40,097 nucleotides of DNA from Minisyncoccota bacterium (GCA_041661005.1 JBAZVG010000001.1:72019-112115); one strand, 5' to 3'; positions 6,006 through 38,214 are shown, counted from the first letter of the stretch. Made by a program: numbers and translations. The notes: generated from the letters alone by a model not told the origin.

Positions 6006-7226
6006 ATGGGAATTTTTTCGAGAAATAAAAAAGAAAAAGACAGACTGTTTTTGGTTTTTGATATCGGATCTTCTTCGGTGGGTGGGGCGCTTTTTGGAGC
6101 GCGAGGATCTGGGATTCCAAAAATAATTTTTTCTACGCGCGAACCTATAATTCTACAAAAAAGTCTTGATATCGATCAGTTTTTGTCTTCTACTGTAAAG
6201 TCTTTAGAGATTGTCGTTGGAAAAATATATAAAGCGGGTATGGAAAAACCTGAGGAAATCTTTTGTGTTCTTTCATCGCCTTGGTATGTCTCTCAGACTA
6301 GGGTTATCAAGTTTGAAAAAAATACTCCATTTATATTTACCTCCAAATTAGCTCTTGGTTTAATCCAAAAAGAAATAACCCTTTTTGAAGAAGAATACTT
6401 AGCTAAGTATTCGGATATTAAAAGTCCGGTTCGTTCCATTGAATTTAAAAATATCAAAACAATGCTGAATGGTTATGAAACATCAAATCCCTTGAATCAA
6501 AAAACATCGGAACTCGAAATGGCTGTTTTTATTTCAATCAGCGGAGAGCAAATCTTGAAGAGAATCGAAGAGACCATAAGGGGGCATTTTCATTTTGAAA
6601 AGATAAGATTTTCTTCTTTTGCTATGGCATCTTTTGCTGTGGTGCGCGACATATTTGCAGAGAGCGAAAACTTTCTTCTGATTGATGTCGGTGGAGAGGT
6701 GACAGACATTTCCATGGTCAAGAAGAATACATTGCGCGAGTCGGTTTCTTTTCCTTTAGGCTGTAATTTTATTATACGTGAAGTTGCATCTGCCCTCCAC
6801 CTCTCGTTCGGTGAAACGAGGTCGATTCTTTCTCTTTTTAGAGACGGACATGCCACGGATTCTATGGTAAAAAAGATCGATCTTGTCATGAATGAATTGA
6901 GAACACAGTGGCTAAAAAAGTTTCAAGAATCTTTAGTAAATCTTTCCAATGATATTTCTATTCCCTCGACTGTCTATCTAGCTGTCGACAAAGGAATGGC
7001 TAGTTTTTTCTCGGATACAATCAAAAATGAACAATTTAATCAATATACTTTGACTGAGTCGAAATTTAAAATTATCTTTTTGGGTGCGGAAGTATTCAAT
7101 GGTTTGATTCAATTCAAGGAAAATCTCGCCCGTGACACTTTTTTATCCATTGATTCTATTTACATTAATCGGTTTTTAATTAATCAAACTTCATCTGATA
7201 TGGAGAATGGATTGGAAAAAATATAA
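6006..7226 (+). CDS. actin-like fold FtsA/PilM-related hypothetical protein
   Basis: FDIGSSSVG phosphate-1-like and IDVGGEVTD phosphate-2-like motifs. Confidence 0.65.
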   Translation: MGIFSRNKKEKDRLFLVFDIGSSSVGGALFGARGSGIPKIIFSTREPIILQKSLDIDQFLSSTVKSLEIVVGKIYKAGMEKPEEIFCVLSSPWYVSQTRVIKFEKNTPFIFTSKLALGLIQKEITLFEEEYLAKYSDIKSPVRSIEFKNIKTMLNGYETSNPLNQKTSELEMAVFISISGEQILKRIEETIRGHFHFEKIRFSSFAMASFAVVRDIFAESENFLLIDVGGEVTDISMVKKNTLRESVSFPLGCNFIIREVASALHLSFGETRSILSLFRDGHATDSMVKKIDLVMNELRTQWLKKFQESLVNLSNDISIPSTVYLAVDKGMASFFSDTIKNEQFNQYTLTESKFKIIFLGAEVFNGLIQFKENLARDTFLSIDSIYINRFLINQTSSDMENGLEKI

Positions 7227-7228
7227 TT

Positions 7229-8557
7229 ATGTCAAAAAATTTATTTCAAGATATGGTAAAAATAAAACGTATTAACCGAGAGAAACAGACGCTCGAAAAT
7301 GAAGAGCGTTCTGAGTTACTTTCGCGCGATGCGATTCCGTTGAGGCGGGCGGAAACTCCCGTCCAAAAAGATACTTATGACGTCCCTGACAGGCAAAACA
7401 ACAAGAGTCGACCTAGGTATATGCTTTGGGTAATAGCGGTTATTTCTCTGGTGTTCTTTCTTTCCAGTATTTCATTTTTATTTTTAAAGGCAGTAGTAAC
7501 CGTAAATCCAAAAATGAAAGATGTGGTTTTGAATCAAAATTTTTCCGCCAGTCTGAATGGGGGCGTGGAGGGACTGCCTTTTGATTTAATAGTCATCTCT
7601 GGGGAAGAAGAAAAAAAAGTGTTAACCACTGGGACGAAAGATGTTTCAGAAAAAGCTCGAGGTGTTGTTTTGATTTATAACAATTTCAGCTCTTCTTCTC
7701 AGCGACTTGATGTAGATACTCGGTTGGAAGGCTCAAATGGAAAAATTTATAAAACCGAAAGACAAGTAACCGTGCCGGGAATGAAAGGCGGAGTTCCCCA
7801 ATCTGTCGAAGTGGGTATCTATGCGGCAAATTCTGGAGTGGAATACAACAGCAATCCACTTGATTTCACGATTCTTGGATTTAAAGGGACGCCTAAATAT
7901 TCAAAATTTTATGCCAGATCCAAGGGTGAAATTACTGGCGGATTTAAAGGCAAGACAGTCGCCATTTCCGATGCAGAAAAGTCTTCTGTCATTAATGATT
8001 TAAAGACAGTTCTCCAGGCGAAACTTTTAAAAAAAGCGACAGACCAGATTCCAAGCGGATTTGTATTGTTTAAAGAAGCGATTTTTCTAAAAATTGATGA
8101 AAATAATGTCGGTGCGGTTTCTTCTGAAGACAAAATGCTACTCACGCAAATAGAATTGCCTATACAAATCAAAGGCACGCTGTATGGTTTTCTCTTTAAT
8201 GAAGAGAAATTGACAAAAGAAATCGCAAAACAAAACATAAACGGATATGATGGCAGTGATGTATATGTGTCAAACATTCGAGATTTGACTTTCTCCGGTT
8301 TCGATAAAGATAAAATTGCGTTTGAAAATGTAAGCAATATAAATTTTAACTTATCCGGTTCTGCCAAGATTGTTTGGAAATTAGATGAGAGCAAGCTTGT
8401 GACGGATCTCTTGGGTAAATCAAAAAAAGATTTTAATCAAGTATTGTTACAGTATCCAAATATTGATTCCGCTGAATTGACAATCAGCCCTTTCTGGAAA
8501 TCATCCCTACCTAATAAAGCAAAAAATATAAGAGTGATTGTGAATTACCCAAAGTAA
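7229..8557 (+). CDS. single-TM hypothetical protein, baseplate-J-like family common in CPR
   Basis: One TM near residues 65-90 followed by a beta-rich region (KARGVVLIYN, TRLEGSNGKIY, GVEYN). Tightly coupled to the upstream gene (2-bp gap). Confidence 0.5.
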   Translation: MSKNLFQDMVKIKRINREKQTLENEERSELLSRDAIPLRRAETPVQKDTYDVPDRQNNKSRPRYMLWVIAVISLVFFLSSISFLFLKAVVTVNPKMKDVVLNQNFSASLNGGVEGLPFDLIVISGEEEKKVLTTGTKDVSEKARGVVLIYNNFSSSSQRLDVDTRLEGSNGKIYKTERQVTVPGMKGGVPQSVEVGIYAANSGVEYNSNPLDFTILGFKGTPKYSKFYARSKGEITGGFKGKTVAISDAEKSSVINDLKTVLQAKLLKKATDQIPSGFVLFKEAIFLKIDENNVGAVSSEDKMLLTQIELPIQIKGTLYGFLFNEEKLTKEIAKQNINGYDGSDVYVSNIRDLTFSGFDKDKIAFENVSNINFNLSGSAKIVWKLDESKLVTDLLGKSKKDFNQVLLQYPNIDSAELTISPFWKSSLPNKAKNIRVIVNYPK

Positions 8558-8597
8558 AAGATTGTAGAAATTTGTCAATTATTGTATAATACGTTAT

Positions 8598-9080
8598 ATG
8601 AAAATTTTTATTGGAACAGATCATGCGGGTTATGTGCTAAAGGAGAAACTTGTGTCGTCTTTAAGGGGAGAGGGGCACGAGGTTGTGGATAAAGGTGCAT
8701 ACGAGTACAACGAACACGACGATTATCCTGATTTTGTTATTCCAGTTGCGCAAGAGGTGAGCCAGGATTCAAATAATACTAAAGGAATTATTTTAGGTGG
8801 TACGGGGGAAGGAGAAGCTATCGCAGCCAATAAATTTCCCAACGTTCGAGCGGTGGTTTTTTATGGCGATGCAAAGCCTATTGTAGATGATGAATCAAAT
8901 ATTATAGTCAGGTCAAGACAACACAACAATTCAAATATTCTTTCTCTGGGTGCTAGATATTTCACAGAAGAAAGCGTGATGGAAGCTGTCAATCTTTGGC
9001 TCAATACTCCTTTCAGTGAAGATGAAAGACACATTCGTAGGTTGGGGAAGATAGACAAAATTCAAATAAACAAAAAATAG
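8598..9080 (+). CDS. rpiB: ribose-5-phosphate isomerase B (RpiB/LacA/LacB family)
   Basis: IGTDHAGY, DDYPDF, GGTGEGEAIAANK, RQHNNSNILSLGAR, RHIRRL. Confidence 0.95.
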   Translation: MKIFIGTDHAGYVLKEKLVSSLRGEGHEVVDKGAYEYNEHDDYPDFVIPVAQEVSQDSNNTKGIILGGTGEGEAIAANKFPNVRAVVFYGDAKPIVDDESNIIVRSRQHNNSNILSLGARYFTEESVMEAVNLWLNTPFSEDERHIRRLGKIDKIQINKK

Positions 9081-9089
9081 ACAAAACTC

Positions 9090-9797
9090 ATGAGTGAGAT
9101 AATACCGGCAATTTTAGAAAAAAATTTTAGCGAGATAAAAAATAAGCTTACAGCCTTGCGCGAACAGGTGAAATGCGTGCATATAGATATCTGCGACGGG
9201 GTAGCAGTGCCGAGCCAGACGTGGCCTTTTTCTTCGGGTGGGTTTGATGATTTTGATTTTCGAAAAATTATAAACGAAGAGGAGGGGATGCCCTTTTGGG
9301 AAGAATTTGATTTTGAATTTGATCTTATGGTGGCGGATGCGGTGGAGAATTTTGATTTATACATGAAGCTTGGACCAAAGAGAATTATTTTTCATCCAAA
9401 CATAGGAGGTGAGAGAGGTAAAATTGAAGAATTTGAGAATTTTTTGGAAGGTCTGGATATGTATATACGCGATAATGTAGAGATAGGTATTGCTTTTAGG
9501 CCAAGTGATGATTTGACTGTTGTTTCTAAACTTTCACATAAAGCTGACTTTTTACATTGTATGGGTTCTGACAAGATTGGTCTTCAAGGAGAACCTTTTA
9601 GTGAAAAGGCACTAGAGAATATAAAATATTTAAAGAAAAATTTATCTGGGGTAGTTATATCTGTAGATATTGGTATTAACTTGCAAAATGCGGAAAGAAT
9701 ATTAGATGCCGGCGCAGACAGGCTCACTATAGGTTCTGGTATCTGGAAAAGTTCTGACCCAATCGGCGCGCTCCAAAGTTTCCAAAATTTGGTATAA
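9090..9797 (+). CDS. rpe: ribulose-phosphate 3-epimerase, divergent
   Basis: IIPAIL, HIDICDG, SVDIGIN, GADRLTIGS; lies between rpiB and transketolase. Confidence 0.8.
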   Translation: MSEIIPAILEKNFSEIKNKLTALREQVKCVHIDICDGVAVPSQTWPFSSGGFDDFDFRKIINEEEGMPFWEEFDFEFDLMVADAVENFDLYMKLGPKRIIFHPNIGGERGKIEEFENFLEGLDMYIRDNVEIGIAFRPSDDLTVVSKLSHKADFLHCMGSDKIGLQGEPFSEKALENIKYLKKNLSGVVISVDIGINLQNAERILDAGADRLTIGSGIWKSSDPIGALQSFQNLV

Positions 9798-21155: not shown

Positions 21156-24125
21156 ATGAAAGAATATAACCACTTAAAGATAGAAAGTAAATGGCAGAAA
21201 GAATGGGAAAAAAAAGGGATTTATCATGCAGAGAACCCTACCAAGGACGGGGCAAGTAATTCAAAAAAACCCAAATATTATAGTTTAATTGAGTTTCCTT
21301 ACCCATCCGGCGAGGGTCTTCATGTTGGACATCCACGGCCTTATATAGGAATGGATATAATTTCTAGAAAAAGAAGGTTGCAAGGATACAATGTCTTGTA
21401 TCCTATTGGCTGGGATGCATTCGGCTTACCGACAGAGAATTACGCCATAAAAACAGGCAAGGACCCGAGAGTTGTCACTAAAAAAAATACTGATACTTTC
21501 CGTAAACAGATACAATCGCTTGGCATTTCTTTTGATTGGTCTCGAGAGATAAATACTACTGATCCAAAATATTACAAATGGACGCAATGGATATTTTTGC
21601 AGTTTTTGAAAAAAGGTTTGGCTTACAAAAAGAAGATGGAGATAAATTGGTGCCCGAAAGATAAAATCGGTCTGGCTAATGAAGAAGTGATAACCCGTTC
21701 GACAGGCTCAGGGCAAGCTGGCTATTGTGAGCGATGTGGGACTCCTGTAGAAAAAAGAGAAAAAGAACAATGGATGCTCGCTATTACAAAATACGCTGAT
21801 AGGCTTTATAAAGATTTAGATGAAGTGGATTATTTGCCTCAGATAAAACTGGGGCAGAGGAATTGGATAGGGAAGAGTGAAGGCGCGGAAATAGATTTTA
21901 AAATCAAAGATAGTAGTGAAAAAATAAAAATATTTACTACGCGCGCTGATACTATTTTTGGTGCTTTTGCGGTCATACTTGCGCCAGAACATGAATTGGT
22001 GCAAAAATCAAAATCACAAATTAAAAATTTTAGTGAAGTTGAAAAGTATTTAAATGAAGTAAAAAAGAAAACAGACATAGAACGCACCTCCGAAGATAAA
22101 GATAAAACAGGAATTGAATTAAAGGGATTGAAAGCAATAAATCCAGTAAATAATGAAGAAATTCCTATTTGGATTGCGGATTTCATTTTGGTTCAATATG
22201 GCACAGGAGCTGTCTTTGCAGATATGCATGATGAGCGTGATTTTGCATTCGCAAAAAAATACAAGATGTCGATGCGTCAGTCAGTCATGCCTTTGTTTGA
22301 AGATAAAGTGCATCCATGGGTTAAGGATAAAAAAATAGTAGAAAGAAAAGCGATACATGCTGTGATTAGAAAAAATAATGGGGACATCCTGCTTCTTTAT
22401 TGGAAGGGTGAAGAATGGAAGGGTAAACCTCCGGTTACTTTTGTCATAGGTGGTGTTGAGAACGGTGAGAATTTGATTGATGCCGCTATGCGAGAAATAA
22501 GAGAAGAAACAGGTTTTTTAAATTTAAAATTTGTTGAACAATTGCCAATATCTACTCAATCCAGATTTTTTGCCGCCCATAAAGATGTTAACAGGATTGC
22601 GAATGTAACTTGTCTTGTTTTTGATTTAATAAATGAAGATCGTGCGGAAGTTGATAAGAAAGAAAAAAAACTTCACGATTGGAAATTTGTCTCTGTAAAT
22701 AAAGTTGCGCAAGATCTGAATATTGAAGATGATAAATTGTTTTTTAATTATCTAAATAAGCCTTCAACATTTGTTGGTGAGGGCGTGTTGATAGATTCTG
22801 GTAAATTTACCGGTATGCCATCTGTAGAAGCTCGTCAAAAAATAATAAAAGAAGTGGGTGGTAAAATAGTCACCAAATTCAAACTTCGCGATTGGGTTTT
22901 TTCGAGACAGAGATATTGGGGCGAGCCGATTCCGGTGATTTTTTGTAATACTTGTGGGACAGTGCCAGTGCCGGAAAAAGATTTGCCGGTAGAACTTCCA
23001 AAAGTTAAAAATTATCAGCCGACAGATAGTGGTGAATCACCACTCGCAAACATAAAGAGTTTTGTGGACACTCGGTGTCCACTATGTAAAGGCAAAGCGA
23101 AGAGGGAAACAGACACAATGCCAAATTGGGCAGGAAGCTCTTGGTATTATTTGCGATATGTTGATTCGAAAAATAATAAAGCTTTTGCAGGGAAAAAGAA
23201 TTTAGAATACTGGCTCGGGAATGACCAAGTTGTTGGTGGAGTAAATTGGTATAACGGAGGCAATGAACACACTACTTTACATCTTTTGTATTCTCGTTTT
23301 TGGCATAAATTTTTATATGATTTAAAACTTGTGCCTACAAATGAGCCATATATGAAGCGAACTTCGCATGGCATGATTTTAGGCGAAGGGGGAGTTAAAA
23401 TGTCTAAATCTCTAGGTAATGTGATCAATCCAAATGAAATAGTGAAAACATACGGCGCAGACACGATGCGTGTTTATGAAATGTTTATGGGGCCGTTTGA
23501 TCAATCCGTCGCTTGGTCTACGGAGAGCATCATCGGTGCAAGGAGATTTATTGAAAAAGTTTGGAGAATTCAGGCGAAGCTTGTGAATGATTTTGAACGG
23601 TCTGGCCGGGGGAGGGACCCGGAGAACCGAGGACCTGAAAAATTATTCACAAGCGAAGCCTATATAAATCTAAAAAGATTACTACACAAAACCATCAAAA
23701 AAGTTTCTGAAGACATTGAAGATATGCGTTTTAATACTGCTGTTTCTTCTATGATGATTCTGGCAACAGAGATGGAGAAAGCTGAGAATGTTTCCGTAGA
23801 TGATTTCAAAATGTTTTTAAAAATTCTTTCGCCTTTTGCGCCACATGTGACGGAAGAATTGTGGAGCATGCTTGGTGAAAAGAAAACAATCAATCTTTCG
23901 GAATGGCCGAAATGGGAAGAGAGTTTGATAAAAGATGAAGAGGTAAAAATTATGGTACAAATAAACGGCAAAGTCAGAGGTGAAATCATTATCCATGTGG
24001 ATGAACAGAAAGAAGATGTAAGAGATAAAGCTCTCAAAGACGCTGACATAGTGAAATACGTTGAAGGTAAAGATATTAAAAGAATAATCTATGTAAAAGG
24101 TAGACTTATTAACATTGTTTTGTAA
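21156..24125 (+). CDS. leuS: leucine--tRNA ligase with an internal Nudix domain
   Basis: FPYPSGEGLHVGH (HIGH), CP1 motifs FTTRADT and GTGAV..HDERD, SRQRYWGEPIP, KMSKS; Nudix box GGVENGENLIDAAMREIREETGF. Confidence 0.97.
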   Translation: MKEYNHLKIESKWQKEWEKKGIYHAENPTKDGASNSKKPKYYSLIEFPYPSGEGLHVGHPRPYIGMDIISRKRRLQGYNVLYPIGWDAFGLPTENYAIKTGKDPRVVTKKNTDTFRKQIQSLGISFDWSREINTTDPKYYKWTQWIFLQFLKKGLAYKKKMEINWCPKDKIGLANEEVITRSTGSGQAGYCERCGTPVEKREKEQWMLAITKYADRLYKDLDEVDYLPQIKLGQRNWIGKSEGAEIDFKIKDSSEKIKIFTTRADTIFGAFAVILAPEHELVQKSKSQIKNFSEVEKYLNEVKKKTDIERTSEDKDKTGIELKGLKAINPVNNEEIPIWIADFILVQYGTGAVFADMHDERDFAFAKKYKMSMRQSVMPLFEDKVHPWVKDKKIVERKAIHAVIRKNNGDILLLYWKGEEWKGKPPVTFVIGGVENGENLIDAAMREIREETGFLNLKFVEQLPISTQSRFFAAHKDVNRIANVTCLVFDLINEDRAEVDKKEKKLHDWKFVSVNKVAQDLNIEDDKLFFNYLNKPSTFVGEGVLIDSGKFTGMPSVEARQKIIKEVGGKIVTKFKLRDWVFSRQRYWGEPIPVIFCNTCGTVPVPEKDLPVELPKVKNYQPTDSGESPLANIKSFVDTRCPLCKGKAKRETDTMPNWAGSSWYYLRYVDSKNNKAFAGKKNLEYWLGNDQVVGGVNWYNGGNEHTTLHLLYSRFWHKFLYDLKLVPTNEPYMKRTSHGMILGEGGVKMSKSLGNVINPNEIVKTYGADTMRVYEMFMGPFDQSVAWSTESIIGARRFIEKVWRIQAKLVNDFERSGRGRDPENRGPEKLFTSEAYINLKRLLHKTIKKVSEDIEDMRFNTAVSSMMILATEMEKAENVSVDDFKMFLKILSPFAPHVTEELWSMLGEKKTINLSEWPKWEESLIKDEEVKIMVQINGKVRGEIIIHVDEQKEDVRDKALKDADIVKYVEGKDIKRIIYVKGRLINIVL
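23579..23654. repeat. intragenic palindromic element in leuS (16-bp arms, one mismatch)
   Basis: gcttgtgaatgatttt ... aaaattattcacaagc around a GC-rich core. Confidence 0.85.
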
Positions 24126-29932: not shown

Positions 29933-31318
29933 ATGGTATACTATAGTGTGCATGAAAGGATAAGAAGTACCGAAAAAATCTGTTGTTATCGAAATTCTTA
30001 TTTTGGTATCTTCTTCTTTTTCCTCCTTTTTTTTCTAGCAAACAACTTAGCTTCCGCGGAACTTGCAACTGCCAAAGTTGCTCTCCCTTTATATATTTAT
30101 CCCTCAAATGGAGAAACAAACTGGACCAAAGCTCATACTTTTGGACAAAAAATTGATTTTATTATTGCTAATGTCTACAACGGTCCAAGCGGGGAAGTAA
30201 ATTCCGATTGGACGAACATGATTGAAGCTACTATTCAAAATCATATAAAAGTATATGGTTATGTTTACACAAGCTATGGGGCAAGGGCAGGAAGCAAGGT
30301 GGACGAAGATGTGGCAAGGTGGCTACAACTTTATCCCCAAATCAGTGGTATTTTCTTGGACGAAACTGCTTCGAGCTCCGACAAAATTCCTTACTATAAA
30401 GCGCGCTATGATTATATAAAGCGATTGAATTCTTCTCTAAGGGTAGTCATCAATCCCGGAACTGTTACCGATGAAGGATATATGAATGTGTCTGACGTGA
30501 ATACTATATTTGAAAGCAATCTTTCGTCGTGGAATAATGCACATTTTCCTGAATGGGTTTTAAAATATCCCGCTAGCCGTTTTTATTCGATCATCTATGG
30601 AGTGTCGAGTGAAGAAGAAATGAAAAATGTGGCGCGAGTCGCTCGAGAAAAGAATTTTGGGGAGGTATTCATTACAGATGCCTTCTCTCCTTCGGATAGG
30701 CTCCCAACTTATTTTTCATCAGAAATATCTGAAATTACAAGTGTAACTACTCCAATCATTCCCCCGGTTGTTCCTCCAATAGTTATTCCCCCAGTAGATC
30801 CAGTCATTCCCCCAATAAATAACGAACAGACTTCCAATCCTCCTTCTCCCGACCTCTGCTCTAACATTTCAGGAATTCAATTATCAATTCCTTCTAGCAT
30901 GAATATAGTAAATCTCGAGTGTGTAATCCAAGATGTTGGTAATAACGTGTCGGAGGATATTTCAGACACCACGACTTTCTCTGAAAATAGAACAGTTGTT
31001 AAAATTACGCCTGCGCCCATACCCATAGAAGAATGTTACGACGGTAGCCAGTATAACAGGTCCACCGGAGCGTTGTGCGCTAATAACAATCCAGTTTACA
31101 ACTTCGGCTCTACTATTCTCAAGAATGGAAGCAAAGGTGAAGCGATTAAAGAACTCCAAAGATTTTTAAATGCAAAATTAAATCTTGGCCTTGTGCTGGA
31201 TGGTAAATTTGGTCCGAAGACGACCGTTGTCGTCAAGAAATGGCAGAGAGAGAATGGTTTAGTGGCTGACGGTATAATTGGACCGAAAACGAAAGCAAAG
31301 ATGGAGACAGATTTATAG
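29933..31318 (+). CDS. secreted spherulation-specific family 4 (GH135-like) hydrolase with Pro-rich linker and C-terminal peptidoglycan-binding domain
   Basis: VALPLYIYP, NGP, GIFLDE, VINPG, FES; linker PIIPPVVPPIVIPP; LKNGSKGEAIKELQRFL...DGKFGPKT..VKKWQ...ADGIIGPKT. The start may be GTG 29948. Confidence 0.8.
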   Translation: MVYYSVHERIRSTEKICCYRNSYFGIFFFFLLFFLANNLASAELATAKVALPLYIYPSNGETNWTKAHTFGQKIDFIIANVYNGPSGEVNSDWTNMIEATIQNHIKVYGYVYTSYGARAGSKVDEDVARWLQLYPQISGIFLDETASSSDKIPYYKARYDYIKRLNSSLRVVINPGTVTDEGYMNVSDVNTIFESNLSSWNNAHFPEWVLKYPASRFYSIIYGVSSEEEMKNVARVAREKNFGEVFITDAFSPSDRLPTYFSSEISEITSVTTPIIPPVVPPIVIPPVDPVIPPINNEQTSNPPSPDLCSNISGIQLSIPSSMNIVNLECVIQDVGNNVSEDISDTTTFSENRTVVKITPAPIPIEECYDGSQYNRSTGALCANNNPVYNFGSTILKNGSKGEAIKELQRFLNAKLNLGLVLDGKFGPKTTVVVKKWQRENGLVADGIIGPKTKAKMETDL

Positions 31319-31345: not shown

Positions 31346-31531
31346 GTGGCTACAAATAATTCCTCGCCGTCGCTCGGAATTTTCGCAGCCCGCCCCTCGG
31401 AGGCTCGGCTACTACATAGCCAGGTGATTTTCTAGCTACGCAAAGAAAATCCTTTCTCGCGACTTAAAATTTAACTTGTGGCTACAAATAATTCCTCGCC
31501 GTCGCTCGGAATTTTCGCAGCCCGCCCCTCG
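31346..31531. repeat. two exact 54-bp direct repeats (31346-31399 and 31478-31531)
   Basis: gtggctacaaataattcctcgccgtcgctcggaattttcgcagcccgcccctcg occurs twice, 132 bp apart. Confidence 0.95.
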
Positions 31532-31565: not shown

Positions 31566-31615
31566 TCCACAAATTTAAAAATCTGCCGCAGGGCAGATAT
31601 TTTAAAGTTTGTGGA
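31566..31615 (-). terminator. long hairpin immediately 3' of tRNA-Ala
   Basis: tccacaaatttaaaaatctgcc-gcag-ggcagatattttaaagtttgtgga. Confidence 0.7.
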
Positions 31616-31684
31616 CCCTTGGAGGCTCGAACTCCACACCTCCTCATTGCAAATGAGGCGCTCTACCAGATGAGCTAAGGGCCC
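31612..31684 (-). tRNA. tRNA-Ala (TGC)
   Basis: GGGCCCTTAGCTCATCTGGTAGAGCGCCTCATTTGCAATGAGGAGGTGTGGAGTTCGAGCCTCCAAGGGTCCA; cloverleaf, G3:U70 pair, CCA not encoded. Confidence 0.97.
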
Positions 31685-33087: not shown

Positions 33088-33104
33088 AGCTCCGGGGGTA
33101 GGGA
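33088..33104. repeat. 17-bp tRNA-3'-end-like direct repeat, copy 1 (putative att site)
   Basis: agctccgggggtaggga, identical to 38195-38211. Confidence 0.8.
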
Positions 33105-33165: not shown

Positions 33166-33513
33166 TTATTCCTTTTCTTTTATCAGAACTTCTCTTGGCT
33201 TGGCTCCATCTCCTTCACCTATGATATCTCGCTCTTCCAGTAAGTCCATCAATCTAGCTGATCGCGCATAACCTAATTGAAATTTTCTTTGAATATAAGA
33301 AGTTGATGCTCTGCCTGCTTTTATCACAGCGGACTTTACTTTCTCATATAAGTTTTCATCATCAAGATTATCATAAATACCCCCATTTTCATTTTTTATC
33401 TGCATTATAATATCTGAATATTGCGAGTTCTGACGCTCTGAAATCAATCTGACTTTTTCAGACAATTCGTCGATTTTTCGCTCTATATTTTTAAGATTTT
33501 CTTTTCCGAACAT
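33166..33513 (-). CDS. stand-alone FtsK gamma (winged-helix) domain protein with N-terminal coiled coil
   Basis: DENLYEKVKSAVIKAGRASTSYIQRKFQLGYARSARLMDLLEERDIIG..GAKPREVL; no motor domain. Confidence 0.88.
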   Translation of the reverse strand: MFGKENLKNIERKIDELSEKVRLISERQNSQYSDIIMQIKNENGGIYDNLDDENLYEKVKSAVIKAGRASTSYIQRKFQLGYARSARLMDLLEERDIIGEGDGAKPREVLIKEKE

Positions 33514-33575
33514 AGATTATATTATATCAATACTCCTTCAAAAACACCATTTACAAATCTTGCCAAAGTTCATTG

Positions 33576-33603
33576 TAAACTATTCTAATATTCTTGAGAA
33601 TAT
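33576..33603 (-). promoter_or_regulatory. promoter-operator cassette, copy 1 (upstream of the FtsK-gamma gene)
   Basis: 28-bp repeat containing palindrome ATATTCT-tg-AGAATAT; minus strand reads TTCTCA-17-TACAAT. Confidence 0.65.
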
Positions 33604-33610
33604 CAGAACA

Positions 33611-33892
33611 CTAAAATCTACATAAAAAATCGCAGAACATTTTTCCATAAGGTGAAACTCTATGCTCTACTGTAGTGCCTTTGTAATTTTTATTGAGTAA
33701 CCCTGCTTGTACCAATCGCCTCGTGTGTTCAGAAATTGTTTTAAAATTACAATCTAGGTTTTCTGAAATTTCATCCAAGGAAATCCCGGGATTTTTTAAC
33801 ACAAGTAGTAATATTGAAATACGACGATGATTAGCCGCGCCCTTAAAATATCTTTCGAGTTGCTTTGCTGTTTTTGTTTTGTTTGTTTTCAT
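33611..33892 (-). CDS. ArsR-like winged-helix transcription regulator
   Basis: ANHRRISILLLV...ISLDEISENLDCNFKTISEHTRRLVQAGLL.K...G..VEHRVSPYG. Confidence 0.85.
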   Translation of the reverse strand: MKTNKTKTAKQLERYFKGAANHRRISILLLVLKNPGISLDEISENLDCNFKTISEHTRRLVQAGLLNKNYKGTTVEHRVSPYGKMFCDFLCRF

Positions 33893-33906
33893 ACTACTAT
33901 TAATTA

Positions 33907-33934
33907 TAAACTATTCTAGTATTCTTGAGAATAT
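33907..33934 (-). promoter_or_regulatory. promoter-operator cassette, copy 2 (upstream of the HTH gene)
   Basis: 27/28 identical to 33576-33603; minus strand reads TTCTCA-17-TATAAT. Confidence 0.7.
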
Positions 33935-33992
33935 AGGAATAGATTTAGGATTTTTGTTGTGCTGTTTTATAACTCTTGCCAAAGTGCGTGAG

Positions 33993-34163
33993 CTAATATT
34001 TACTTTTCACCGGAAAGTTGCTTGGTGAGCTTTCTAGGGCCTCAGGAAGTGCATTGGTGGGTTCAGAATGTGCTGTGTTTTCAGGAGCAGGCTCGGTGGG
34101 CTCTTTGGAGCTTGGTGGAATAGAGTTTTCTTCGGGGGTTGGGTTTTGAGGTTCGTCGGGCAT
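33993..34163 (-). pseudogene. short Pro/Glu-rich ORF, possibly a truncated gene remnant
   Basis: MPDEPQNPTPEENSIPPSSKEPTEPAPEN..., 56 aa, ATG 2 bp after the upstream stop. Confidence 0.3.
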
Positions 34164-34165
34164 AA

Positions 34166-34459
34166 TTAATTTCGGTGAGATCCAAACCAATCCCAAGCTT
34201 GTTTTGGAAGCCACCCTTGTTGGTTCTTTGGATTAACTTCCATTATTATGTGTTGTCTTAGAGGCATATGCTTAATTAAAAGATTATAAAGTTGATTCAC
34301 TTCTAATGCAGACTCAACAAAATAAAGTCCCCCCGGTAAATAATGCCACCAAGTTTTAATATAACCAAGTTTATAGAGTTGTTGTATATAAACATGAAAT
34401 TTACTCAGATCAAAGGGATGAGTTGTATTAGGCATAATCATGTAAATTTTATTATTCAT
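34166..34459 (-). CDS. small ferredoxin-like-fold protein (family often labelled SinR-like or Cas2-like)
   Basis: WWHYL...LYNLL...IIMEV....QGWLPKQAWDW motif; recognised from memory. Confidence 0.55.
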   Translation of the reverse strand: MNNKIYMIMPNTTHPFDLSKFHVYIQQLYKLGYIKTWWHYLPGGLYFVESALEVNQLYNLLIKHMPLRQHIIMEVNPKNQQGWLPKQAWDWFGSHRN

Positions 34460-34856
34460 GTTCTTGTTTCTCTATTTTATCTATTGATAAGGAATCGGCA
34501 GTTTCGGGTTTGGGTAAGCTTGGATTATTTTCAAGTGTAGATGATTTAAAATCTTTATATGTATGTTGTTGATCTCCTAAGACTTCTAAAGCTCTCATCA
34601 TGAATATATGATGTTCGGACTGGAGAAATTTTTTATCTCCCCAAATTAAAATTCCAATAAAAGAAAGTAAAAATACAGCTAAAGTAAATCCAATTGCCCA
34701 CATAAAAAAAATTTGAACAGTAATATTATCAGTAAAACTAACAACCACTAATCCGGCAAAAAGGAAAGGTAAAATCCATAACAGAGAACTGAGCACAGTA
34801 CTAACACGTACTTTCTTTACCATTTCTGTAGCTGATTTTATTGGATCAAATGACAT
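34452..34856 (-). CDS. hypothetical two-TM membrane protein
   Basis: Two hydrophobic segments (about residues 20-68), then LQSEHHIFMMRALEVLGD; overlaps the next gene by 8 bp. Confidence 0.7.
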   Translation of the reverse strand: MSFDPIKSATEMVKKVRVSTVLSSLLWILPFLFAGLVVVSFTDNITVQIFFMWAIGFTLAVFLLSFIGILIWGDKKFLQSEHHIFMMRALEVLGDQQHTYKDFKSSTLENNPSLPKPETADSLSIDKIEKQEHE

Positions 34857-34860
34857 AAAA

Positions 34861-37008
34861 TTATTTTTTCTCTAAAACTTCCTGAACTATCCCCTGAATA
34901 ATATCTCCTTCTTCTGGAATAATTGGTTGATGTTTGGAATTGGTACTTTTTGGTAATAATATTCTGCGACCATCTCTTTTGTCGTAATATTTTATTGTGA
35001 CATTTTCACCCCCAAGCAAGGCAACAACCTTATCACCAGTTTCACCCTTTTCTGAATAACGACACAATACTAAATCCCTATCATTAATTCCGGATTTATT
35101 CATAGAATCTCCATCAGCTCTAACTATAAAATATTTTGCTCCAGGTTTAATTTTACTTTTTTCAACTTCAATATATTCCTCAATATTTTCTTCACTAAGA
35201 AGCGGATTTCCACATGGAGCAGAACCGACTAATGGAATACCAATTGTATCAATAACATATGGGGATTCAATTATTTGAGATAAAATAACTTCATCTTTTA
35301 TCTTATTCTTAATGTTGTACATCTCTACGTGTTCATTAAAATAGTCTCTTAAATTTTTATTACATGCATAAATATATGAACCCTTAATCCCTCTAAGCAA
35401 AAGAGTTTTGTATATATTTATTATAAACTTTTTAAGTTCTTCTGGATTTTTAATTGATTGCTTTCCATTTTTATCGAAGTAGTTTTCTTCTAAAATAATA
35501 ATCTCGTTTTTTTCTTTATCGTAAGATATTTCATCTCCAAAAATTATTCCTGTATAATTTAAGTCATATCCTTGCGTGGTATGAATACATCCAACCTCAT
35601 TTATTGCATTCTGGGAATTAATAAAATCTTTGGTTACGCTATTCCATTTTAATTTAATATCGCCAATGACAATGTCATGTATATCTTTTTTTCGTGAAAT
35701 CCATGGCCAAGAAAAACCTGCAACGAGTCTTGATAAACCAAATTTGTCATTCCTATTTTTTATCTTTTCAACCATATCATTCAAGGAATCAAAAATTAAA
35801 AATTCATAGTCCCCAGATTTAAATAAAATATCATTTTTACGGAACTTGCAATTTAATAATTTATCAATATAACTAACATAATCAACCCCACCCCTAACTC
35901 TAAATTGTGAATTAAGTTTTTGTATTAATGTTGTCTTCTTTAATTTAAGAAGATCAAAATCTTTCTTATTAACATCTGATGGTTTTATAGATTGATTTTC
36001 ATCATAGAAAAACAGACTTTTTTTACTTTGTGTAATTATCCAATCTAATTCATTGCCAACATGTTTTTCTAAACCCAATTTTTGATTTACAATATCAAAA
36101 GCACCGAAATATGTACCAAGATTAATTCTTTTTCGTAATCTATGTGATTCATCAACAATTAAAATATCGTATTTTTTATTTACAACCTCAGCTGGACCAA
36201 TTACCATTGAAGCATTCAAGCCTTTTACATTTCTGAATACTTTTTTTAATGTTCCACGAAATGAAGCCATCGGAACAACTAATGCCATAGATGGATCGGG
36301 GTACTTATTCTTTAAATCTCTAACTAATTTTATAAATTCCTTCTCGTCGTCCCCAAAATCCTTAAAATTAAAATCATTTAGATCGGAATTTAATAATTTA
36401 AAAAGGAATACAGCTAAAATAGTTTTACCGGTACCAGCACCTCCCTCAACAATTATACTGTTTGTTTCATTTTGTAAAAGATTTTTAATAAGTTCAATGA
36501 TGCTATTCTTTTGATCAACTGAAAGAGTTTTATAGGGAGAATACTTAAATAAATCAGAATTATTAATTTGTTCTAACGAATTTTTTATTATTCCTTCAGA
36601 TTTCAATTCTTTCCAAACTGTTTTAAAAATATCCCAATATATTTCATTTTTTTGATAATAAGTATGATTAGCTAACCCAAGATTTCCATTTAATAATTTA
36701 AATTGGCCATCTCCCGATAAATATTTAATTAAATTAGATTCTATATCTAGCGTTGCTGATTTATTAAATTTGTCACTTGTTATAAGTCGAACCTCTGTAA
36801 GTTTATTTTTAGAATTATTTTTAAGATGTGTAGACATTCTAGAGATTGCGTCAGTTGTTTCACCTACATAGGCCTCCTTAATATTTCCATCACTTAAAAT
36901 ATAAACCAGTGGCCACAAACCATCTACAAAATGATTTTTATCAATTTTATTTAACAAACTGAAATTAAAATCGTATTTTTTGATTTCAAAAATGTTTACT
37001 TCATTCAT
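34861..37008 (-). CDS. GIY-YIG nuclease + DUF2075 (Schlafen group 3-type) SF1 helicase-like ATPase + C-terminal S24 (LexA/UmuD-like) peptidase domain
   Basis: VYIL...YVGET...R..H and LDIES (GIY-YIG); GGAGTGKT, IVDESHR, YDENQ, SQFR, CIHTTQGYD; IPLVGSAPCG, ADGDSM, VTIKYY (S24). Confidence 0.88.
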   Translation of the reverse strand: MNEVNIFEIKKYDFNFSLLNKIDKNHFVDGLWPLVYILSDGNIKEAYVGETTDAISRMSTHLKNNSKNKLTEVRLITSDKFNKSATLDIESNLIKYLSGDGQFKLLNGNLGLANHTYYQKNEIYWDIFKTVWKELKSEGIIKNSLEQINNSDLFKYSPYKTLSVDQKNSIIELIKNLLQNETNSIIVEGGAGTGKTILAVFLFKLLNSDLNDFNFKDFGDDEKEFIKLVRDLKNKYPDPSMALVVPMASFRGTLKKVFRNVKGLNASMVIGPAEVVNKKYDILIVDESHRLRKRINLGTYFGAFDIVNQKLGLEKHVGNELDWIITQSKKSLFFYDENQSIKPSDVNKKDFDLLKLKKTTLIQKLNSQFRVRGGVDYVSYIDKLLNCKFRKNDILFKSGDYEFLIFDSLNDMVEKIKNRNDKFGLSRLVAGFSWPWISRKKDIHDIVIGDIKLKWNSVTKDFINSQNAINEVGCIHTTQGYDLNYTGIIFGDEISYDKEKNEIIILEENYFDKNGKQSIKNPEELKKFIINIYKTLLLRGIKGSYIYACNKNLRDYFNEHVEMYNIKNKIKDEVILSQIIESPYVIDTIGIPLVGSAPCGNPLLSEENIEEYIEVEKSKIKPGAKYFIVRADGDSMNKSGINDRDLVLCRYSEKGETGDKVVALLGGENVTIKYYDKRDGRRILLPKSTNSKHQPIIPEEGDIIQGIVQEVLEKK

Positions 37009-37010
37009 AA

Positions 37011-37358
37011 CTAAAGTTTGTTATATTTTGTATGCCTTCCTTTAGCTTTTTCGACTGGATACTTTTCTTCGTTTTTTAAAATCTTTTTTTTAAGTGCTTC
37101 TGAAACATCAATCTTTAGATCATGACTCATCAGCAAGACCCAATAAAGTACGTCCGCTAATTCTTCACCAATCTCGACTTTATTAGTTTTAATATATTTT
37201 TCAATTTCCTCTTTGCTTTTCCATTGAAAATGTTCCATAACTTCTGTCGCCTCTAAAACTAAAGATAAGGCAACATCTTTCGGGTTGTGGAATTGCTTCC
37301 AATCTCGGGCGTCACGGAAAGCTATAATTCTTTTTGTTAAATCGTTAATATTTTTCAT
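37011..37358 (-). CDS. MazG-like nucleotide pyrophosphohydrolase (dCTPase-like)
   Basis: FRDARDWKQFHNPKD...EATEV...EELADV...KNEEKYP. Confidence 0.93.
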   Translation of the reverse strand: MKNINDLTKRIIAFRDARDWKQFHNPKDVALSLVLEATEVMEHFQWKSKEEIEKYIKTNKVEIGEELADVLYWVLLMSHDLKIDVSEALKKKILKNEEKYPVEKAKGRHTKYNKL

Positions 37359-37726
37359 AATTTTATCTCAAAAGCTCATCACTCGAAACCCCCGCCAAAG
37401 GACGGGCAGGCAAGTGCTTTTGCTAATTTGGTAATAACCGAGTTTTCTTGAGTTATTCACAACCTGAGTATAATCCTTATTGTCTTTTTCAACAATGTTG
37501 TTTTGTAATACAATGTGTCTCCAAAATCTTCCCCCGCATTCCTCCCCAGAAATACAGTCGCGCTTTAATGGGACAGTGCACGACACGATTCTGCTGAATC
37601 GCTTGCGGGCAGAATTCCGAATTTCGCCAAATTTCAAAGAAATCTACGCGAAACTAAATATGCATATATGCATACCTGCCTCCATTTCCCCCTTCTATTT
37701 TACATTTCTCCCACGTTACTTTACTT

Positions 37727-37744
37727 AACTAAAGTACTTTAGTT
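37727..37744. promoter_or_regulatory. perfect 18-bp palindrome, possible operator
   Basis: aactaaagt|actttagtt, upstream (minus strand) of the MazG operon. Confidence 0.35.
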
Positions 37745-37837
37745 GGCTAAAGTAAATAGCTTCCGAATTCACTAGGACAGTCCTTGCGAAAACTTAGATA
37801 AACAGAAAGCCCCACCGAAGCAGAGCTCCCGTGGGGT

Positions 37838-38194: not shown

Positions 38195-38214
38195 AGCTCC
38201 GGGGGTAGGGATCG
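38195..38214 (-). repeat. tRNA 3'-end remnant (Asn-like), direct repeat copy 2
   Basis: Minus strand CGATC-CCTAC-CCCCGGA-G-CT reads as T-loop, T-stem, acceptor strand and discriminator G; the rest of the tRNA is absent. Confidence 0.75.

Follow-up and report, generated by a model that had tools for sequence, protein, structure and literature searches.

Four closely spaced minus-strand genes in the genome of a Minisyncoccota bacterium raise the question of whether they act as one system, and in what process. They lie at positions 34166-37358 of the stretch of DNA that was analysed, which is 40,097 nucleotides (nt) long and is called the window here, and they are designated g1 to g4 from the upstream to the downstream end. 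A first-pass annotation of the window had described them as a single operon and a candidate anti-phage system, with the caveat that the last two genes might be a separate module. It is the caveat that our analysis bears out. The first two genes, which we refer to as cassette A, are g1 (37011-37358, minus strand), encoding a MazG-like protein of 115 amino acids (aa), and g2 (34861-37008, minus strand), encoding a 715-aa protein that is predicted to be a fusion of three enzymes, namely a GIY-YIG nuclease, a superfamily 1B (SF1B) helicase of the DUF2075/SLFN-g3 type and a LexA-type S24 autopeptidase. The other two, cassette B, are the leading gene g3 (34452-34856, minus strand), whose 134-aa product has two transmembrane (TM) helices, and the trailing gene g4 (34166-34459, minus strand), which encodes a soluble ferredoxin-like protein of 97 aa. 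In the interpretation that we prefer, and to which we give an even chance, the locus would hold two independent two-gene cassettes in tandem, cassette A being an Nhi-like nuclease-helicase effector that is gated by self-cleavage of the RecA-stimulated type and accompanied by an obligate deoxynucleoside triphosphate (dNTP) pyrophosphatase.

The MazG and nuclease-helicase genes of cassette A

The product of g1 matches the MazG-like family PF12643 (6.8e-17, 61.9 bits against a cut-off of 27). Its nearest solved structures are an archaeal pyrophosphatase (4qgp, 1.9e-19) and mouse/human DCTPP1, also known as RS21-C6, with which it aligns end to end (3.4e-16). The acidic residues that bind metal, E36, E39, E42, E66 and D69, are invariant in all 71 orthologues, which points to selection on enzymatic activity and not on mere binding. 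The MazG identity given in the first-pass annotation is therefore upheld, and g1 is predicted to be an all-alpha MazG dNTP pyrophosphatase of the DCTPP1/RS21-C6 type. Enzymes of this kind are regarded as house-cleaning enzymes, and both DCTPP1 and mycobacterial MazG sanitise the dNTP pool.

With regard to g2, the nuclease-helicase with intact motifs that had been proposed is equally well supported. The GIY-YIG domain (36679-36921, minus strand, residues ~30-110) is matched marginally by PF01541 (6.6e-6, 26.8 bits against a cut-off of 22.6); all seven of its characteristic residues (Y36, Y47, G49, R57, H61, E90 and N107) are kept in 119 of 119 homologues, and the AlphaFold model shows it as beta-beta-alpha-beta-alpha. 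The SF1B helicase core (35314-36531, minus strand, residues ~160-565) matches PF09848 (DUF2075, SLFN-g3_helicase) with an E-value of 4.8e-61 across residues 185-549. It carries a Walker A motif at G189-T196 and a Walker B motif at D286-E287, and K195, D286 and E287 are conserved in 120/120 homologues. A sequence search of this core against solved structures gave no match, so that a fold search was needed; Foldseek returned Upf1, Dna2, RecD2, SLFN11 and nsp13. The AlphaFold model of the entire protein has a predicted local distance difference test (pLDDT) value of 77.7, with confident domains and two low-confidence segments, the linker 567-585 and the loop 597-607. More than 6800 homologues of g2 were found. 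Nearly all of the best 120 are 710-730 aa long with an identical architecture, and they come from the Candidate Phyla Radiation (CPR; Nomura-, Staskawicz-, Moranii-, Taylor- and Saccharibacteria) and, in many cases, from Bacteroidota.

The most distinctive feature of g2, which had escaped the first-pass annotation, is a C-terminal S24 domain (34873-35247, minus strand, residues ~588-712, including the cleavage-site loop) that resembles the C-terminal domain of LexA. This tail is UmuD-like, and it matches PF00717 (7e-19, 68.1 bits against a cut-off of 23.3) and the lexA model TIGR00498 (3.9e-20), the latter below that model's full-length cut-off because the N-terminal domain of LexA is missing from g2. 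Residues 589-699 align to residues 74-180 of Escherichia coli LexA, with PLVGsapCGnPLL in g2 placed over PLVGrvaAGePLL in LexA. The predicted self-cleavage site Cys599-Gly600 (35209-35214, minus strand) corresponds to Ala84-Gly85 of LexA and Cys24-Gly25 of UmuD, whose scissile bond is Cys-Gly; the nucleophile Ser635, within a GDSM motif (35104-35106, minus strand), corresponds to LexA Ser119, and the general base Lys673 (34990-34992, minus strand) to LexA Lys156. The spacing of G600, S635 and K673 (35 + 38 residues) is the same as that of A84/G85, S119 and K156 in LexA. Both S635 and K673 are kept in 118/118 homologues, the P1 residue of the cleavage site is Cys in 60 of them and Ala in 58, and P1' is Gly in 117 of the 118. 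In Foldseek comparisons with LexA C-terminal domains, including that of LexA bound to a RecA filament, the tail gave TM-scores of 0.80-0.84 with a root-mean-square deviation of 2.5 A and 31-34% identity. The cleavage loop 597-607 has a pLDDT below 50 and is thus modelled as flexible. By these comparisons, the tail of g2 is predicted to be a complete self-cleaving S24 domain of the LexA type, with the Ser-Lys dyad and the (C/A)-G site in the right geometry for autocleavage, and g2 would in effect be a LexA in which a nuclease-helicase takes the place of the DNA-binding head. Judged by residue conservation, cassette A appears to hold four intact catalytic units, namely the MazG, GIY-YIG, helicase and S24 domains.

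The recurrence of MazG next to DUF2075, which the first-pass annotation had pointed out, proved to be the rule. A scan of one genome per species gave at least 572 g2 loci, of which 80 were fetched and analysed, their genes being called by a simple script of our own. In 79 of these 80 loci, which come from CPR bacteria, Bacteroidota and Lentisphaeria, the gene immediately preceding that of the helicase is a g1 homologue (42-85% identity). Of 70 pairs, 44 have a 4-nt and 19 a 1-nt overlap of the MazG stop with the helicase start, and in the others the two lie within 8 nt of each other except for one mis-assigned pair. The pairwise identities of the MazG proteins and of the helicases are correlated (r = 0.62). 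The pairing is also found in g2 relatives of 42% identity on three contigs of a viral collection, and in GIY-YIG/DUF2075 relatives without an S24 domain (34-37% identity) on megaplasmids of the Bacillus cereus group, where the two genes are annotated as 'nucleotide pyrophosphohydrolase' and 'DUF2075 domain-containing protein' and adjoin HNH nucleases and a zeta toxin. The g2 proteins of CPR bacteria and Bacteroidota are 55-60% identical and have a patchy distribution, which argues for horizontal transfer. The guanine-cytosine (GC) content of g2 in the window is 27.9%, compared with 38.8% in the housekeeping part, and this atypically low value is consistent with a recent acquisition. Cassette A can therefore be described, from these comparisons, as a conserved and horizontally spread two-gene module whose genes appear to be inherited together and translationally coupled. 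An origin in phages was considered and rejected, as a g2 relative was present in only 3 of 2.9 million viral contigs and a g4 relative in none, and GenBank phages gave no more than a few partial matches.

The genes that flank cassette A are not conserved. A conserved third gene was sought among them and discarded, since the largest neighbour family covers just 6 of the 80 loci; it consists of a TPR protein of ~660 aa that is encoded upstream, with a 4-nt overlap at the MazG start, in Haliscomenobacter, Flavipsychrobacter and relatives (L007, L021, L024 and L027, also L015 and L030). In these loci, TPR, MazG and helicase may represent a three-gene variant of the cassette. The immediate neighbours also include two dCMP/cytidine deaminase genes, and enzymes that handle nucleotides recur around the pair.

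Cassette B and the surrounding DNA

The four minus-strand open reading frames (ORFs) are spaced as had been described: g1 and g2 are separated by 2 nt (37009-37010), g2 and g3 by 4 nt (34857-34860), and g3 overlaps g4 by 8 nt. The Pfam matches of g1 and g2 and the numbers of homologues (more than 6800 for g2, 17 for g3 and 29 for g4) indicate that they are true genes and not chance ORFs. The 8-nt overlap requires that g4 begin at its earliest ATG, whereas another assembly of identical sequence has an 89-aa g4 from a later ATG. The 97-aa form is favoured because its N-terminal extension is kept in 16/20 homologues, because strand beta1 of the AlphaFold model is formed by residues 4-10, and because homologous g3/g4 pairs in other contexts overlap by 4-8 nt. 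A terminator scan gave no site between g1 and the end of g4 and a terminator-like hairpin upstream of g1 (37830-37805), which makes co-transcription of the four genes at this locus plausible. The non-coding leader of g1 (37359-37837, minus strand, 479 nt), which this hairpin precedes, should hold the promoter. It is predicted to be structured, with a folding z-score of -3.9 (0/100 shuffles were equally stable), a raised GC content of 41.8% and a palindrome with 21-nt arms at 37716-37755; yet it has no match in Rfam and no homologue among the other loci examined that would allow a covariation test, and a structured RNA was not retained as a candidate.

Hydropathy places the two TM helices of g3 at residues ~18-40 and ~47-72, in agreement with its first description as a 2-TM protein; an acidic disordered tail and the conserved juxtamembrane motif L(Q/R)(S/T)E(E/H)H..M..LE.LGD complete the protein. 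Its only library match is phrog_27377 (1.6e-7), a family without functional annotation. For g4, the small ferredoxin fold that had been proposed is supported by an AlphaFold model with a pLDDT of 86.6 (beta-alpha-beta-beta-alpha-beta with a C-terminal helix), but the likeness to Cas2 or SinR is not: no Pfam, PADLOC or helix-turn-helix (HTH) family matches g4, Cas2 stands at rank 45 of its Foldseek list (E 0.03, TM-score 0.51), and the window has no CRISPR-like array. An identification of g4 by its fold was likewise abandoned, as Foldseek returned generic ferredoxin-like structures only (muconolactone isomerase, HMA, ACT-like). In a profile search, the g4 family grew to 440 cluster representatives, and a scan of 60 members gave no Pfam family for the g4 domain in any of them. 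The invariant residues of g4 are WW(H)Y, MEV, QGW and AWxWF.

All close homologues of g4 (29) and g3 (17) were found in metagenomes of the CPR type. A g3 homologue always lies directly upstream of the g4 homologue, and elsewhere the pair never occurs with g1 or g2; a distant relative of g4 is preceded by an overlapping gene for a 147-aa 2-TM protein. Conversely, g3 and g4 are present in none of the 80 g1-g2 loci, including those of the closest CPR relatives (60-76% identity), nor in the CPR contexts L089-L092. Other contexts in which the pair occurs in the absence of g1 and g2 number at least 15. Three times it stands behind type III Mod-Res genes (L093, L095/L096 and L103); elsewhere it is located behind the genes for DnaE (L083), DnaX (L105) and a Vut_1 transporter (L094), behind a bactofilin-adjacent gene (L081), beside a serine recombinase gene (L085) and on further short contigs. 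Cassette B is inserted closely behind diverse genes and shows a tendency to sit behind those that encode DNA-handling enzymes.

The borders of the cassette are visible at the nucleotide level. A block of ~0.7 kb (34184-34882, minus strand), running from ~26 nt before g3 through g4, is 80-81% identical to L093, L095 and L096, where the upstream gene encodes a type III Res helicase, and the homology ends at the end of g4. As g3 and g4 are missing from every one of the 80 g1-g2 loci, are paired elsewhere without g1 or g2 and have sharp homology borders, the locus is better described as two cassettes than as one system. Cassette B would be an independent mobile unit of ~0.7 kb, to judge from these alignments, and not a component of cassette A. 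The first reading is corrected accordingly, in that the 2-TM and ferredoxin-fold genes belong to a mobile cassette with its own biology. Our guess as to its nature, made with low confidence, is a small membrane-acting module of the toxin or regulator type with a soluble partner.

Two details of its insertion were observed in addition. The last ~8 codons of the gene upstream of g3 fall inside the homology block, and in three independent CPR contigs the pair follows the type III Res gene (L093 3225-6158, L095 2011-4979 and L103 1-2036) at a distance of 4-38 nt. Immediately downstream of g4, a candidate ORF of 56 aa (33993-34164; MPDEPQNPTPEENS...) begins 2 nt past the g4 stop; it is Pro/Glu-rich and of low complexity, with a GC content of 49% compared with 31-32% in g3 and g4.

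The first 31 kb of the window contain housekeeping genes, among them those for alanyl-tRNA synthetase, leucyl-tRNA synthetase, transketolase, deoxyhypusine synthase and RNase P RNA. The leucyl-tRNA synthetase (21156-24125, 989 aa) has a NUDIX hydrolase domain inserted at residues 397-528, right after the editing domain. Past tRNA-Ala(TGC) (31611-31684, minus strand), there is a series of short genes on the minus strand that belong to no known family. A perfect 54-nt direct repeat (31346-31399 and 31478-31531, 132 nt apart) occupies a GC-rich non-coding stretch immediately beyond the 3' end of this tRNA gene. A second perfect direct repeat, the 17-nt sequence AGCTCCGGGGGTAGGGA, is found at 33088-33104 and 38195-38211, exactly two copies in the window with none expected in shuffles. 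These copies enclose 5.1 kb with an FtsK-gamma gene, a winged HTH (wHTH) gene, g4 to g1 and a 91-aa TM ORF, and on the minus strand each copy sits immediately upstream of a promoter-like -35 element. They could be att-like boundaries or a shared regulatory site, and the latter is at least as likely, given that no integrase lies inside and that -35 elements adjoin them. Finally, the FtsK-gamma-domain gene (33166-33513) and the ArsR/wHTH gene (33611-33892) are preceded by duplicated regions (33550-33608 and 33900-33985; 40 nt at 88% and 20 nt at 90% identity). In each, the palindrome ATTCTTGAGAAT lies over a promoter-like site, and a third copy of it is present at 31109-31126; the duplicated regions resemble a common operator, on which the wHTH protein may act.

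Defence, repair or addiction

The self-cleavage of LexA, UmuD and phage CI is stimulated by filaments of RecA on single-stranded DNA (ssDNA), and their S24 domain dimerises. By analogy with these proteins, the S24 domain of uncleaved g2 would restrain the nuclease-helicase, probably as a dimer, or would dock g2 on RecA-ssDNA filaments. Filaments that arise during phage DNA replication or DNA damage would then stimulate cleavage at Cys599-Gly600 by Ser635 and Lys673. The 599-residue nuclease-helicase freed in this way may, by analogy with Nhi, degrade replicating (phage) DNA, while MazG would hydrolyse dNTPs, possibly 5-modified dCTP or other non-canonical dNTPs, and could either starve phage DNA synthesis or clear the pool of nucleotides released by degradation and block the reuse of abnormal ones. 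In its most specific form, the proposal makes g2 an immune effector gated by RecA filaments, in which the SOS trigger directly unleashes the nuclease-helicase on replicating foreign DNA while the DCTPP1-like enzyme removes (modified) dNTPs. We put this forward tentatively, as a possibility that is on the doubtful side. If it were true, bacteria would possess in g2 a counterpart of the replication-stress response of SLFN11, and g2 would be the first defence effector activated by S24 autoproteolysis.

The genomic neighbourhood of cassette A is suggestive of enrichment in defence islands. Among 274 proteins encoded by the two nearest genes on each side, at least ~25 (at least ~9%) are of the defence or toxin-antitoxin type, a figure that is crude because it is based on self-called ORFs and on lists of the 25 commonest families, without a matched control. 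A review abstract (PMC13434031) puts defence genes at ~1.5% of genes genome-wide. Both shells summed, the counts comprise AAA_21 (5), McrBC (2), AAA_5 (2), ResIII (2) and C5 DNA methyltransferase (2); Fic/SoFic (2; SoFic 7e-114), PIN (2), PemK, NYN and an EcoO109I-type (type II) restriction enzyme were present as well. HNH-HIT fusion proteins recur beside the cassette, in L076 (dn1, 8177-9151) and among the second-shell neighbours of two further loci. Individual loci add an AriA/PtuA-like OLD-family ATPase (L001), a PD-T4-1-like protein (L063), and HsdR, two PDC-S02 proteins and an Mrr-type type IV enzyme (mREase_IV) in L089. In L003, from a Candidatus Moraniibacteriota genome, a second DUF2075 protein is encoded directly downstream of the pair (6203-8176) and matches PDC-S41 over its full length (3.9e-287). 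An anti-phage role of cassette A is plausible on comparative grounds, given that genes of the defence type appear over-represented around it and that related DUF2075 proteins are known to act in defence.

Several observations weigh against our preferred interpretation. The enrichment figure carries the crudeness just described, and many loci lie among housekeeping genes (GidA, TonB receptors, TPR proteins and glycan clusters). No model of PADLOC v2 covers g1 or g2. As far as the sequence goes, cleavage could either activate g2 or inactivate it in a form of self-limitation. S24-less relatives exist, which means that the core module can do without the S24 gate. Finally, the 4-nt spacing of g2 and g3 leaves room for a local functional link in this genome.

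The strongest alternative is that cassette A belongs to DNA repair or the DNA-damage response. RecA-stimulated cleavage of the S24 domain would then switch the nuclease-helicase on (or off) at stalled forks or damaged DNA, and MazG would sanitise dNTPs. A LexA/UmuD-type domain is a hallmark of SOS-controlled proteins, the established function of MazG and DCTPP1 is house-cleaning, the housekeeping setting of many loci fits, and human SLFN11, which has the same helicase fold, responds to replication stress. However, a repair role accords less well with the patchy distribution and the horizontal transfer indicated by the 55-60% identity of CPR and Bacteroidota proteins, with the atypical GC content, with variable flanks that are apparently enriched in restriction, Abi and toxin-antitoxin genes, and with the relatives on Bacillus megaplasmids beside HNH nucleases and a zeta toxin. 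SOS control of transcription was also tried as an explanation and rejected: in all 78 loci tested, the 160 nt preceding MazG contain neither of the two published Bacteroidetes LexA operators (CTAA-N5-TTAG and GGA-N5-TCC), and the g1-g2 pair is not reported in the Bacteroidetes SOS regulon study. We therefore hold the repair explanation to be rather unlikely, though far from negligible.

According to another explanation, cassette A is a selfish addiction module resembling a toxin-antitoxin system, in which the nuclease-helicase is the toxin, MazG neutralises the toxin or its products, and cleavage or instability of the S24 domain is the trigger. In keeping with this, the arrangement, with a small gene upstream whose end overlaps the start of a large enzyme gene by 1-4 nt, resembles that of many toxin-antitoxin pairs, the two genes are always inherited together, and the pair occurs on plasmids and in variable regions. 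On the other hand, the invariant catalytic residues of MazG indicate that its enzymatic activity is under selection, and we know of no antitoxin with a MazG fold. We consider such a module improbable; it would moreover overlap with abortive-infection defence instead of excluding it. The original proposal that all four genes form one system of MazG, nuclease-helicase, membrane effector and small regulator draws support from the single strand, the short gaps, the overlap and the lack of a predicted terminator, and from three other contexts in which g3-g4 immediately follows a helicase-nuclease gene (type III Res), a possible sign that it is an accessory to such enzymes, but the absence of g3/g4 from every g1-g2 locus, their occurrence behind genes as different as those for DnaE, DnaX and a transporter and the start of nucleotide homology only ~26 nt before g3 make it very improbable.

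The preferred interpretation, a self-cleavage-gated effector with an obligate pyrophosphatase, would bear on several questions. To the question of how DUF2075 nuclease-helicases are held back from host DNA, g2 would offer a testable answer in the form of a built-in LexA-type self-cleaving switch, of which the scissile bond and the catalytic dyad can be identified. The group 3 Schlafens, human relatives of the Nhi-type helicases, protect against both viruses and replication stress. The strict partnership of MazG and nuclease-helicase across phyla has no description in the literature searched: a full-text search found no paper that pairs MazG with DUF2075 or Nhi and none on S24 fused to a nuclease-helicase, 'S24' in Millman et al. 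(2022) being table numbers and not the peptidase domain. Cassette A is also common: it occurs in at least 572 species representatives, its metagenomic proteins number in the thousands, and even the tiny CPR genomes carry it, so that a functional assignment would annotate many genes at once.

Relation to known systems

The identity of g1 and of the S24 tail can be traced to well-known enzymes. Like DCTPP1/RS21-C6 and MazG, g1 matches PF12643, aligns over its whole length with DCTPP1 and 4qgp and keeps the EXXE...EXXD acids; it differs from them in being a stand-alone protein of 115 aa that is always translationally coupled to a nuclease-helicase. With LexA, UmuD and phage CI, g2 shares the whole C-terminal domain, the Ser-Lys dyad and the Ala/Cys-Gly site at LexA-like spacing. 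In contrast to LexA, it has no N-terminal winged-helix DNA-binding domain and no HTH match, its first 565 residues being GIY-YIG and helicase. The moiety that would be cleaved off is a nuclease-helicase of 599 residues and not a repressor head or the N-terminal arm of UmuD, and g2 is not a transcription factor.

The helicase of g2 belongs to the same Pfam family (PF09848, 'SLFN-g3_helicase') and has the same fold as human SLFN11 and the other group 3 Schlafens. SLFN11 acts at stressed replication forks coated with ssDNA-binding protein, which may be seen as a conceptual parallel to an enzyme gated by RecA filaments. Unlike the Schlafens, g2 has no Schlafen (AlbA_2) tRNA nuclease domain, and it is this nuclease domain that the bacterial Schlafen defence proteins concern.

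The comparison with PADLOC models that the first-pass annotation had suggested as a check gave no match for g1, g3 or g4, only weak local matches for g2 and no exact known system. PDC-S14 matches the GIY-YIG region of g2 weakly. PDC-S41, a PADLOC candidate, is also a DUF2075 protein, and its full-length gene adjoins the pair in L003. AbiO and Nhi match the S24-less relatives from Bacillus weakly. The matches of g2 to these models are all weak and partial (E 1e-4 to 1e-7), and g2 is not a member of PDC-S41, PDC-S14 or AbiO.

Single-protein anti-phage immunity by a DUF2075 nuclease-helicase has been shown experimentally for Nhi (Staphylococcus epidermidis SERP2475; Bari et al. 2022) and for Nhi-like proteins (Millman et al. 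2022). These proteins share with g2 an N-terminal nuclease fused to a DUF2075 (PF09848) SF1B helicase whose structural relatives are Upf1, Dna2 and Dda-type helicases, and the likeness suggests degradation of phage DNA as the likely mode of action of g2. Nevertheless, the nuclease of g2 is GIY-YIG, whereas that of Nhi is PD-(D/E)XK, and the PADLOC Nhi model matches g2 only locally (residues 149-206, 26 bits, 8.5e-7). In addition, g2 has a C-terminal S24 domain and an obligate upstream MazG, which turn the single protein into a two-gene module. By these sequence criteria, Nhi and its Nhi-like relatives would be the nearest characterised systems to cassette A, the S24 switch and the obligate MazG partner being no part of Nhi.

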